Part shown: one piece after another, positions 33-6,855 of the stretch
Numbering within the stretch: the first letter of the stretch is position 1
How the letters are laid out: each line of letters opens with the position of its first letter
IMG/VR virus record: IMGVR_UViG_2703718825_000004
Direction: 5' to 3' (one strand)
Length of the DNA stretch: 8,067 bases
From: a virus
Taxonomy: Duplodnaviria; Heunggongvirae; Uroviricota; Caudoviricetes
Translations under genes and position numbers: made by a program
Notes under the pieces: model-generated
Databases searched by the model: none
The model's input: only the letters and a program-made list of their open reading frames with translations
Told to the model about the DNA's origin: nothing

Positions 33-188
33 TTACTCCTCAGGTTCGTAAGCTGTGAAGACAGCGACCTCCGTCTGGCCGGTTCGGATTCGTACCTCGC
101 AGAGGTCTTTCCTCGTTACCAGTGCCGTCACTATGACGGTTAAACAGATGACGATCAGGGCGATTAACATCGCCTTTTGCTGCTTCAT
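33..188 (-). CDS. hokD: Hok/Gef-family type I membrane toxin (HokD/RelF-like), 51 aa
   Basis: Minus-strand translation MKQQKAMLIALIVICLTVIVTALVTRKDLCEVRIRTGQTEVAVFTAYEPEE matches, from memory, HokD/RelF and the Hok-family pattern (one TM helix, RKDLCEV...TGQTEVAVF...YE). AAGGAG Shine-Dalgarno lies about 9 nt upstream of the ATG at 188-186. Imperfect GC-rich hairpin in the 3' region (about 3-29). Sequence identity is recalled, not searched. Confidence 0.85.
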   Translation of the reverse strand: MKQQKAMLIALIVICLTVIVTALVTRKDLCEVRIRTGQTEVAVFTAYEPEE

Positions 189-245
189 AACCTGCTTCTC
201 CTTGCCTTTCGGCGCGTAAGAGGCTAACCTACGTTTGTGAAGCAT
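33..245 (-). CDS. Mok-like in-frame upstream reading frame overlapping hok (70 aa)
   Basis: Same frame as hok, starting at ATG 245-243 (MLHKRRLASYAPKGKEKQV then MKQQ...). This resembles the MokC/HokC arrangement in which mok is an N-terminally extended frame of hok. No convincing SD before this ATG; inference. Confidence 0.4.
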   Translation of the reverse strand: MLHKRRLASYAPKGKEKQVMKQQKAMLIALIVICLTVIVTALVTRKDLCEVRIRTGQTEVAVFTAYEPEE

Positions 246-431
246 AGATTGGGCCTCAGATTAATGTTAAGCGTCTTGCAGGACGCGTAATGTTAACTGG
301 GGCTTTTCTCTGTCTGCCTTACGGTGGCATGCCCGAGGCAGACAGCCTCAAGCACCCGCAGCAATTCTACTTAACTCTCGCTTTACAGCAAACCGTTTTG
401 CCCGATATGGGAATTCCCATACGGAATGAAT

Positions 432-2427: not shown

Positions 2428-3126
2428 TTACCCGTTATCTCCTGTCGTTATTTTCTGTATGACATCACGATGCTTATTAATTTCCCGCAGCGCGGCGCAT
2501 AAGCGCTCCCACTTCTGAACCTGACCTTTTGCCCGGCGCAGCTCGCGGTTAGCCACATGCAGCGATGGTAAAATCAGACCATCCGGATGCTTTCTGATGA
2601 ACGACGACTGTGACTGCACTGTGACCGCCACACTTTCAGTTTTAATTTCTTCCTGTGTTTCCGCTTCCCGGACTGGTAACGCAACACCTGCCGGCTGAGG
2701 AAAGGCTTTACCATCGGTTTCCGTTACCGATGCAGCTTTCGGCTCTGCCGGTAAATTATCGCCCGGTATGCAGTAACGATATTGACCGTCCTGATTTACG
2801 CGAATCAGACGACCTTTGCTGACAGCCATCGCCAGTGATGAATTCGCCCGGCGGGAGGTAATCCCGAACATTAACGCCAGTTCGTCAGCCGACTGAGGAC
2901 CATGCTGTTCAATCGCGTTAATCAGCATCTCTGCAGTGGTTTTTGGGGCCGCTTCAGTTGCCTCACTCGTCAGCCACCACATCGACCCCTTGTTATCAGC
3001 TTCGCCACGACGCTTCAGCTTCCAGAGTTCGGTAACAGCATCGTCACGGCTGATTTCAAGACGGGCTGCAATCTCGTGCGACGAGGCTTTTTTCAGTGCT
3101 TTCAGTGCGTCAAAAACGGTTTCCAT
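2428..3126 (-). CDS. Hypothetical phage protein, about 232 aa, with two winged-helix-like segments (possible DNA-binding)
   Basis: ORF track frame 2428..3192. The likely start is the internal ATG at 3126-3124 (METVFDALK...), preceded by GGGAGGA at 8-nt spacing. Winged-helix assignment is inference from sequence pattern only. Confidence 0.65.
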
Positions 3127-3160
3127 TAAATTTTCCTCCCGGTAAAAATTACTTCTCAAC

Positions 3161-3823
3161 TCAGACAAAACCGGCCGCCTTCCGGCGCTCATATTCCTGT
3201 TTCAGCAATTCAATTGGCGTTGGCCCTGGCGGGCGTTTGGGTGCTGCCAGTTGTCGCCGGACTGGCGGAACACTGAGGCCATTACCAACATGCTTTGCCC
3301 ATTTCGTCAGCTGCCTTTCCACAAGCCGTTTTAACTCCCCTTCGGTCATCTGGCGCTCAATCCCCTTTGAACGCATCTCGAGGCAAATGTGGTACAGCAC
3401 CGGCTGTGGCCACGGGTATTTATCACTCCCGTCGTACCGCCAGGATTCATTCCTCCAGCGACGGTATTCCTCCATCACGGCATCCACCGTCAGGCCAAAT
3501 GGATTTGCCCCGCTCTCCGAAATCAACGCCACAAACTCAGCCAGATCCGGAGGCCACGTTTCACCCGCCCGGCAGCGGTCCATGCACCGACGGCAGATCT
3601 GCCGGATTTGCTGTTCAGTCATCGCGCCAATCTGAGCAATCCAGAGTTTCGACGGCGCAGCCCCGTTCTTCTGAGTCCAGCGGTTCGAATACACCTCCCC
3701 CATAAGCTCCCACAGCTTCCAGGCCGTTTCCGTTGCTGATAAATCCGTTTTCACGTTCCCACTGTTCGCGTGCAGCCCGGATTTCCTGAACTGCCCGTGA
3801 TGCGGTGCCACCTGGTGCTGCAT
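3161..3823 (-). CDS. Lambda-P-like replication protein (DnaB helicase loader)
   Basis: Translation is co-linear with lambda P as recalled (e.g. [13 protein letters not shown] vs PSPGQFVAWCREE; [16 protein letters not shown] vs YPWKSNAHYWLVTNLYQNMR; [13 protein letters not shown] vs TDAELRRKAADEL). Start is uncertain: ATG 3823 has SD AAGGGGG but overlaps the O-like gene by 209 nt; alternative ATGs at 3703 (SD TGGGAG) and 3622 (8-nt overlap with the O-like stop). Confidence 0.7.
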
Positions 3824-4652
3824 GGCTTACCCCCTTGCTGACTGGTTTTACCTGTGCCCTGACGTGCTGCACGTGGCGGGCAAATTTCTGCTCCCACTGA
3901 ACCTGCGTGAAAACCTTCCCCTCCGCCATCCAGTAATCCCGGAATGCGGCAAGCTCAGCAGGTGTAAACTCAGGCTCAGGCAGAGCCATACCCCACACTG
4001 CTGCCCGCTGTCGAAAATCCGGCGACGGTTGCCAGACTCCAGTCATCGGAAATTTCCCGATCGGTTCGCTCAGGCCGTCCAGGTATTCAGGTTCGGCTGT
4101 CTGCAACGACGCGTCATTCAACTCACCGGTCGTAGCACTCTCGCGCATGCGCGCGTTATGTGTGGGGTTTAATTCTTTATCTGTATCTGTATCTGTCGTG
4201 ATTTGTCGTGACATATGCGTGACGCGTCGTGACTCATCGTGACAATCAGTGTTCTGCTTCCGCAGTCTTTCCCGCTCCCGCTGCGCTCTCTTGCGCTCTG
4301 CCGGGGATTTTGCGGTTTGCGAAACATTACCGTTATCCTCCTTCATCACCTGGCGTTTTTCCCATCCGGAAATAAGATCACCATCCAGAACTCGCCCCTG
4401 CATTGCATGCAAAATTGAATCAATCACGTCTTCCGTCACATCAAGCGCACTTGCTAAATCTTCCGTCGTGACATCAATGTGACCACGTAGTGACACGCCG
4501 TGACATGTCGTGACATTTCGTGACGCACTCACCAGAAGGTGGATATACACCGCCATCACTGTTGCGATTGGCTGTCCTGAGACCCTGGCAATGGTTCGCC
4601 ATTTGGGATCATTTGGCATGTCATGCCACAATCTGAGCCAGGCATTAGCCAT
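3615..4652 (-). CDS. Replication initiator (lambda-O-like / replisome organizer), about 345 aa
   Basis: Lies immediately upstream of the P-like gene. Likely start ATG 4652-4650 (MANAWLRLWHDMPNDPKWR...) with SD GAGGTGA; the ORF track starts at GTG 4658. Two clusters of GTGAC direct repeats at about 10-bp spacing lie inside the gene, as the ori iterons do in lambda O. N-terminal WLRL...ATVMAVYIHLL resembles replisome-organizer N-termini (inference). Confidence 0.7.
   Translation of the reverse strand: MANAWLRLWHDMPNDPKWRTIARVSGQPIATVMAVYIHLLVSASRNVTTCHGVSLRGHIDVTTEDLASALDVTEDVIDSILHAMQGRVLDGDLISGWEKRQVMKEDNGNVSQTAKSPAERKRAQRERERLRKQNTDCHDESRRVTHMSRQITTDTDTDKELNPTHNARMRESATTGELNDASLQTAEPEYLDGLSEPIGKFPMTGVWQPSPDFRQRAAVWGMALPEPEFTPAELAAFRDYWMAEGKVFTQVQWEQKFARHVQHVRAQVKPVSKGVSHAAPGGTASRAVQEIRAAREQWERENGFISNGNGLEAVGAYGGGVFEPLDSEERGCAVETLDCSDWRDD
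4196..4243. repeat. Iteron-like direct repeats, cluster 1 (five copies of CGTGA(C/T), about 10-bp period), putative ori core
   Basis: Seen directly: tgtCGTGAtttgtCGTGACatatgCGTGACgcgtCGTGACtcatCGTGACaatc. Flanked at 4167-4195 by an AT-rich tract that includes (TATCTG)x3, and by the palindrome CGCGCATGCGCG at 4143-4154. Confidence 0.55.
4468..4523. repeat. Iteron-like direct repeats, cluster 2 (six copies of GTGAC, 10-11-bp period)
   Basis: Seen directly: cGTGACatcaatGTGACcacgtaGTGACacgccGTGACatgtcGTGACatttcGTGACg, in the same orientation as cluster 1, within the 5' part of the O-like gene. Confidence 0.5.
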
Positions 4653-4720
4653 ACTCACCTCATCTGATACCGAACTTTACCCTCGAACATCCGGAATAAA
4701 TCCGGCATGAATATTGTTGG

Positions 4721-6802: not shown

Positions 6803-6855
6803 TTTCTGGTGACGTTTGGCGGTATCAGTTTTACTCCGTGACTGCTCTGCCGCCC
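6803..6855 (+). ncRNA. dicF: DicF small regulatory RNA (ftsZ-targeting sRNA of the Qin-type dicB operon)
   Basis: Sequence TTTCTGGTGACGTTTGGCGGTATCAGTTTTACTCCGTGACTGCTCTGCCGCCC matches the 53-nt DicF sequence as I recall it, followed by a T5 tail (6856-6860). It sits immediately upstream of dicB as in K-12. Confidence 0.85.

Follow-up and report, generated by a model that had tools for sequence, protein, structure and literature searches.

Overlapping replication genes in the window

The DNA analyzed here (the window) is a stretch of 8,067 nucleotides (nt) from a Caudoviricetes virus (IMG/VR record IMGVR_UViG_2703718825_000004), and its minus strand carries a replication initiator gene followed by the gene for a putative helicase loader of the lambda P family (hereafter P). 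Both reading frames are open across 3615-3823, with 209 nt common to a 347-amino-acid (aa) initiator open reading frame (ORF) and a 220-aa P ORF (Table 1), as an earlier note made from the sequence alone had observed. We find that this two-frame arrangement is kept from Vibrio phages to Escherichia coli, and our sequence comparisons favor ATG 3823 as the start of P, with a probability of about three in four, in which case the loader is 220 aa long and the overlap spans the full 209 nt. That the overlap measures at least about 100 nt, with P beginning upstream of a conserved AWxLW motif, we regard as very likely.

The initiator frame corresponds to the P frame +2 and runs on to TGA 3617-3615, the stop that the same note had given for it. 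Because the P frame contains an in-frame TAA at 3829-3827, ATG 3823 is the earliest possible start of the P ORF, and the good Shine-Dalgarno (SD) sequence that had been pointed out before this codon is indeed present at 3836-3830. The segment is 100% identical to a prophage found in many complete E. coli genomes, for example that of O26:H11 strain 11368, and 1370 of 5426 complete E. coli genomes match it at some level, O26 and O157 strains among them.

Table 1. Features of the initiator-loader junction, in window coordinates.
Feature	Position	Strand	Remarks
Initiator gene ("O-like", DnaT-domain phage replisome organizer)	3615..4658	-	From ORF list, Pfam and RefSeq
Helicase-loader gene (lambda P family)	3161..3823	-	220 aa from the proposed start ATG 3823
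Dual-coding overlap	3615..3823	-	Initiator residues 279-347 / P residues 1-70
Shine-Dalgarno-like AAGGGGG	3830..3836	-	6 nt 5' of ATG 3823, within the initiator coding sequence
Proposed P start ATG	3821..3823	-	Initiator frame reads xAT/Gxx, here His-Ala
R1, upstream half of the overlap (ATG 3823 to Met41)	3704..3820	-	Initiator tail with predicted helix; P residues 2-40
R2, downstream half of the overlap (Met41 to initiator stop)	3618..3703	-	Conserved P N-terminal helices; low-confidence acidic initiator end
Met41 codon of P	3701..3703	-	Possible minor internal start; probably a structural residue
Met68 codon of P	3620..3622	-	RefSeq start; overlaps the initiator stop as ATGACTGA; not conserved

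Conservation of the layout and chance expectation

We fetched 36 loci from one-genome-per-species contigs (GTDB genome set). Two of these (L036, L037) encode a lambda-type P without the N-terminal motif of the family and were left out of the count, and one (L032) is frameshifted and was counted separately, leaving 33 loci from about 20 enterobacterial genera. In 31 of the 33, the frame +2 to P stays open upstream over 298-394 codons and closes 53-104 nt beyond the Met41 codon (mostly at 89 or 92 nt), and each of the 31, like every overlap-bearing locus, has an ATG in the P frame 93-126 nt upstream of Met41. Searching phage genomes with tblastn recovered the N-terminal domain of P (residues 33-131, at 36% identity) in 124 records of Vibrio phages, from which four distinct groups were inspected (D62, 199E37-1, 1.214.O and D173); in all four, a +2-frame initiator ORF ends 68-89 nt past the Met41 equivalent, and a P-frame ATG lies at -120 to -126. 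The alignment to homologues that the earlier note had proposed thus finds initiators ending past Met41 and P frames opening upstream of it, and among the options raised there, the recurrence of the layout in these enterobacterial loci and Vibrio phage groups favors a genuine overlap of about 69 codons. Taken together, these comparisons support the long overlap as genuine, neither an ORF-calling artefact nor a recent frameshift.

Double openness is unremarkable in the window alone: synonymous randomization with the initiator protein held constant leaves the P frame open over 3704-3823 in 0.72 of trials, and the converse randomization leaves the initiator frame open over 3615-3703 in 0.29. Its significance comes from conservation across lineages. 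In the P-only region, 21 lineages differ at 0.52-1.0 of 4-fold sites, which is near saturation, so that their codon choices are nearly independent. Multiplying the per-lineage randomization probabilities over these 21 lineages gives a joint probability of 10^-7.5 for a P frame open from the ATG to Met41, 10^-9.6 for an initiator frame continuing at least 50 nt past Met41, and 10^-13.9 for an initiator frame reaching its observed stop. As an internal control, other parts of these genes were read in the same relative frames; stops occur there at 0.042-0.050 per codon, and only 20% and 23% of windows of equal size are open. A Fisher test of T avoidance at stop-prone sites was discarded because the regions end at the first stop by definition, which makes the zero counts a matter of construction.

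Which frame is constrained where

We compared constraint on the two frames through nucleotide diversity, taken as the mean pairwise difference by codon position, and through synonymous-site variability, expressed relative to the non-overlap part of the same gene (Table 2). In the upstream half of the overlap (R1), diversity follows the order O2<O1<O3, a pattern ordinary for initiator coding but not for P coding, and synonymous variability falls in both frames. In the downstream half (R2), the pattern is that of ordinary P coding, like that of the P-only region, and the synonymous sites of the initiator frame retain little of their variability. The codon-position comparison suggested in the earlier note therefore yields a split outcome, with R1 patterned as initiator and not as P, and R2 patterned as P. 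R1 is constrained by both frames, mainly by the initiator, and R2 is dominated by P; within R2 the initiator is constrained mainly to stay open, with amino-acid selection weak at best.

Table 2. Diversity and relative synonymous variability across the overlap (P1, P2 and P3 are codon positions in the P frame, equivalent to O2, O3 and O1 of the initiator frame; intervals in parentheses).
Region	P1 (O2)	P2 (O3)	P3 (O1)	Synonymous variability, initiator frame	Synonymous variability, P frame
R1 (ATG 3823 to Met41)	0.257	0.370	0.345	0.66 (0.53-0.78)	0.68 (0.47-0.84)
R2 (Met41 to initiator stop)	0.124	0.106	0.413	0.16 (0.07-0.28)	0.83 (0.64-1.00, marginal)
P-only region	0.174	0.115	0.518		

This division of constraint has a counterpart in AlphaFold2 (AF2) models of the two proteins. 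Across R1, a short initiator helix lies opposite a P leader of low confidence (to about residue 25), which is followed by the start of a P helix (residues 24-45), and across R2 the first helices of P lie opposite the poorly modelled end of the initiator, so that in the models the ordered element of each frame sits over a low-confidence segment of the other protein. Overprinted genes typically place a constrained element of one frame over a tolerant stretch of the other.

The helicase loader and its start codon

P matches the Pfam family Phage_lambda_P (PF06992) at 59.6 bits (cutoff 26), with residues 55-187 on profile positions 28-161. This match opens 13 residues upstream of ATG 3622, consistent with the earlier remark that similarity to lambda P extends upstream of that codon. 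A phmmer search matched P to the lambda P chains 8v9t and 8v9s, and its C-terminal part can be aligned with residues 94-204 of lambda P in solved DnaB-P complexes. The AF2 model of the 220-aa protein has a mean predicted local distance difference test score (pLDDT) of 78.9, and its top Foldseek matches are the lambda P chains of 9oa1, a DnaB-P complex (E 9e-6, 200-220 columns), with a low template modelling score (0.35) that probably reflects domain orientation. On the strength of the profile and fold matches, P is a putative DnaB loader of the lambda P family.

Several features of the P N-terminus point to a start well upstream of Met68. Residues 41-67 (MGEIYSNRWTxKNGxxPSxLWIAQIG) rank with the best conserved of the protein when 22 homologues are aligned, and AF2 models them as three helices with pLDDT of about 85-89; the AWxLW motif directly upstream of Met41 is conserved as well. 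Residues 31-60 as a whole are modelled at a pLDDT of about 89 and residues 1-25 below 50, and the predicted helix at residues 24-45 spans Met41. Within the poorly conserved residues 1-35, the N-terminal Met is kept (usually as MQ), and length changes occur in whole codons only. Most of the enterobacterial upstream ATGs are preceded at 4-11 nt by a GGAGG-like SD, for example ccggaggtaacagtcATG or cgggaggttcaaATG, and the initiator residues read across the P ATG are mostly H, N or Y followed by A, V or G, all of them compatible with an ATG (read off the alignment, uncounted).

A number of observations weigh against a start at ATG 3823, or against ordinary dual coding across the whole overlap. 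P residues 1-35 are poorly conserved and their diversity is unlike that of ordinary coding, P2 being the most variable position. An SD match is missing at the upstream ATG in 3 of the 32 overlap-bearing loci scored (L019, L020 and L022; the 32 are the 31 above plus L032), and the SD of Vibrio phage D62 is weak. In RefSeq and in phage depositions, P is given as 153, 140 or about 180 aa. Since P residues 1-35 do not resemble ordinary coding sequence, the lowered initiator-frame variability in R1 could partly reflect stop avoidance together with retention of the SD and ATG. In R2, amino-acid-level selection on the initiator is marginal (0.83, with an interval touching 1.00), and the likeness among initiator tails there is largely forced by conservation of P.

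The most serious competitor to ATG 3823, though an improbable one, is a start at Met41 (ATG 3703), which would give a P of about 180 aa and a real overlap of 89 nt, leaving the upstream P frame untranslated. Met41 is nearly invariant in the protein alignment, many loci have a GGAG 3 nt before it, and NCBI records include forms of 177-181 aa from the equivalent Met in Salmonella, Citrobacter, Klebsiella, Pectobacterium and others; the weak conservation and abnormal codon-position pattern of residues 1-35 also speak for this start. On the other hand, the Met41 codon is CTG in Buttiauxella (L018), Dryocola (L021) and Vibrio phage D62, the AWxLW motif lies upstream of it, and initiation there would halve the first predicted helix. 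The upstream ATG is conserved, usually with an SD, the P frame upstream of Met41 stays open in 21 near-independent lineages against the joint chance given above, initiator-frame synonymous variability in R1 is lowered to 0.66, and a spacing of 3 nt is too short for an optimal SD. Orphan P genes that have no upstream overlap also begin 16-32 codons before Met41, which we count as weak support only. Because of the CTG lineages, the AWxLW motif and the helix spanning Met41, and the upstream ATG that usually comes with an SD, 3703, one of the internal starts offered in the earlier note, is unlikely to be the main start, and Met41 is probably a structural residue at which additional, minor initiation is possible.

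The two orphan P genes are found in Erwinia sp. CGal63 (L027, 2926-3552) and Erwinia sp. MMLR14_017 (L034, 2974-3543), where each stands alone beside housekeeping-type genes without an initiator upstream. They are probably deletion remnants, and may be prophage remnants or domesticated copies.

A start at ATG 3622 coupled to the initiator stop, in the manner of lambda and RefSeq, with the long overlap then an ORF-calling artefact, is very improbable. The ATGACTGA stop-start, in which ATG 3622 overlaps TGA 3617-3615, resembles the ATGA junction of lambda O and P, and RefSeq gives a 153-aa P on many genomes. Met68 is Leu in many homologues, however, and the Pfam match already opens at residue 55; a start here would remove the three predicted helices over residues 41-67, and diversity over 3618-3703 follows the P coding pattern. 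This option, also raised in the earlier note, is rejected because Met68 is not conserved and the three helices would be lost.

Equally improbable is a frameshift mutation, a sequencing error or a programmed +1 frameshift leaving a pseudogene or an initiator-P fusion. This reading could draw on the rare fused ORFs of public assemblies (P0148, 496 aa; P0186, 481 aa) and on the frameshift of the Leclercia locus L032. We reject it because the two-frame layout recurs in 31 of the 33 enterobacterial loci and in the 4 groups of Vibrio phages. The window is also 100% identical to many complete E. coli genomes and matches the family consensus layout in both frames, the fusions form clusters of just one or two sequences whose junctions differ, the GGGGG run at Met41 is restricted to close relatives, and no conserved shift site is seen for the +1 shift that a move from initiator to P would need. 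A programmed frameshift in particular was ruled out by the missing conserved slippery site and the unrelated junctions of the fusion ORFs.

As to the disrupted copies themselves, deletion of a single G from the GGGGG run at Met41 could account for the P0148 fusion, and the junction of P0186 lies between two similar sequences that contain TGGGA; both are probably mutations or assembly errors and not programmed events. The one real frameshift, in L032 (Leclercia adecarboxylata NCTC13032, at about 2938-3189), looks unlike the common layout: a P frame with a normal N-terminus passes straight into the initiator-tail frame (…AWHLWQVMGGNILEPVDAEEWGRTFGALDSPDRFDD), and this frameshift near Met41 makes it the only disrupted copy among the loci fetched.

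A start at ATG 3823 has direct consequences for how this gene is annotated. RefSeq places P at 3161-3622 (153 aa) on many genomes, which reduces the overlap to 8 nt, and one deposited phage genome starts P later still (140 aa). Forms of 215-223 aa are also on record, and among the 221-aa clusters two carry NCBI names (P0001, P0003) and another comes from ENA. The loader of a module matched by 1370 of 5426 complete E. coli genomes is thus annotated at four lengths (140, 153, about 180 and about 220 aa), and genome annotation usually starts P too late in this prophage replication module, a systematic error that hides the overlap. Cloning or modelling "replication protein P" from RefSeq would yield a truncated protein, because three helices of the N-terminal domain are absent from the RefSeq form.

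The initiator and its genomic neighborhood

The initiator is 347 aa long from GTG 4658, or 345 aa from the RefSeq start at ATG 4652, and carries a DnaT DNA-binding domain (PF17948) at residues 203-269 (63.6 bits; Pfam cutoff 25). The "O-like" label of the earlier note holds for its position and role; by sequence it is a DnaT-domain replisome organizer, with no homology to lambda O. Its AF2 model, built from an alignment of 17 database proteins, shows N-terminal helices, the DnaT domain (pLDDT 64-84 by 10-residue block over residues ~190-270) and a low-confidence tail. The tail holds a single short helix at residues 286-303 (window 3750-3803; pLDDT about 50), conserved even in Vibrio phages as SAAQSAIAAAR, and residues 303-347, including the acidic end, fall below 50. 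This low confidence fits disorder, without proving it.

The same C-terminal half, comprising the DnaT domain and the tail, is joined in E. coli to at least three types of N-terminal domain: DUF1376; T5orf172, MUG113 and DUF1376 together; and one without a Pfam match. Across proteins representing these types (P0213, P0219 and P0233), the C-terminal half (window 3615-4172, from ...LNPTHNA...) is 57-67% identical overall, and a sharp exchange boundary lies near "KELNPTHNA". The initiator of Vibrio phage D62 resembles the E. coli initiator only over its last ~31 residues. From this tail-only likeness and the varied E. coli N-terminal domains, the initiator tail and the P N-terminus behave as a unit that moves between initiator cores.

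The initiator gene also contains two clusters of (T)CGTGAC repeats, at 4194-4251 and 4465-4532, with approximately 6 and 7 copies spaced about 10-11 nt apart. These clusters resemble iterons and could mark a candidate prophage replication origin, as the lambda ori lies within O.

The surrounding genes form a typical lambdoid early region, with a LexA-like repressor, Cro/CI, YdaT, the initiator, P and DUF1627, and with dicB, DicF and hok/sok nearby. Rfam identifies a sok antitoxin RNA (114.9 bits) at 183-357 (-), beside small hok-type ORFs at the left end, and a DicF RNA (76.7 bits) at 6804-6855 (+), beside the dicB region; RefSeq annotates hokD and dicB in the identical prophage. Downstream of P, the DUF1627 gene occupies 2428-3192 (-), and its longest ORF, from 3192, would overlap the end of P (stop 3161-3163) by 32 nt. 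Its start is ambiguous, as RefSeq places it later, at window position 3126 (locus L001 3527).

How the overlap may work

With P starting at ATG 3823, ribosomes on the initiator mRNA would read through to TGA 3617-3615, and P would be initiated independently from its own SD, embedded in the initiator coding sequence, to give the 220-aa loader. The upstream half of the shared DNA would then encode the conserved short helix of the initiator over a poorly conserved, low-confidence P leader, and the downstream half the first helices of the P N-terminal domain over the low-confidence acidic tail of the initiator. Genetic work on lambda/phi80 hybrids is reported to place the determinants of mutual specificity in the C-terminal part of O and in the N-terminal part of P. 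By analogy with lambda O and P, the shared DNA may encode both contact parts, namely the C-terminal tail of the initiator and the N-terminal domain of P, and shared DNA for both sides of a contact would mean that a matched initiator-loader pair could not be separated by mosaic recombination. In lambda, the loader P is toxic, and deletion of its residues 9-86 abolishes function (PMC3640518). Ribosomes on the initiator message also cross the ribosome-binding site of P, which may limit the output of a toxic loader. An RNA structure hiding this site received no support, since 3780-3880 folds at -24 kcal/mol and its shuffled versions average -26.7 (z 0.95). A co-inherited initiator-loader interface or dosage control of the loader would be a possible function of the overlap.

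We offer, as a speculation that we consider less likely than not to hold, that the ~200-nt segment is a mobile "interface cassette," pairing a loader-recruiting tail (the short helix and the acidic end) with an initiator-binding P domain in a form that would withstand the mosaic recombination by which the origin-binding N-terminal domains of the initiator are freely swapped, and also setting the dose of the toxic loader. Such a cassette would be ancient, occurring in Vibrio phages and enterobacterial prophages on initiator cores without detectable similarity. If the shared DNA does encode the initiator-loader contact, it would provide a simple genetic reason for initiator-loader pairs staying matched in mosaic phages, and would suggest clean separation-of-function mutations.

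Comparison with known systems

The closest point of reference is the O/P pair of lambda, where an initiator gene is likewise followed directly by a PF06992 loader gene in the early-right operon and where P has a comparable two-part build, the C-terminal parts being alignable as described above. The lambda genes (O 38686-39585, P 39582-40283) overlap by only 4 nt in contrast to the 209 nt found here, the O frame is the P frame +1 in lambda and +2 here, and the initiator has no sequence homology to lambda O. The lambda O frame is itself open for 34 codons past its UGA, and a read-through product of this stop, O', was reported by Yates et al. (1977), as cited in PMC3640518. O' resembles the present case in that an initiator polypeptide extends into the DNA of the P N-terminus in another frame, and differs in being a minor product that needs stop read-through, whereas here no stop intervenes and every initiator molecule would be extended. 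The O' extension is basic, with no obvious resemblance on inspection to the acidic tail seen here, and this dissimilarity together with the frame relation (+1 versus +2) rules out equivalence of the two.

The DnaT DNA-binding domain of the initiator (PF17948) is shared with E. coli DnaT. Unlike DnaT, the initiator is a phage protein of 347 aa that starts with a helical domain and continues for 78 aa, as a tail, beyond the DnaT domain, and its gene belongs to a prophage replication module instead of the host dnaT-dnaC operon.

Dual coding over long out-of-frame stretches, with a ribosome-binding site located inside another gene, is also known from phiX174 A/B and A/K and from lambda Rz/Rz1. In overprinted pairs, one frame dominates constraint at any given place, and the product of the other is poorly ordered there. 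The overlap described here differs from these cases in being terminal, the 3' end of one gene running into the 5' end of the following one, where theirs is embedded; in having a dominant frame that switches halfway; and in encoding two products that are partners in one pathway.

Bacterial annotation usually treats overlaps of more than about 60 nt as errors. The overlap between this initiator and its loader withstands comparative tests and, with its midway change of dominant frame, could serve as a benchmark case. We found no published description of this overlap or gene pair in the literature searched, the coverage of which was incomplete. The protein families are known, as are long out-of-frame overlaps in phages; what is new is this deeply conserved case.

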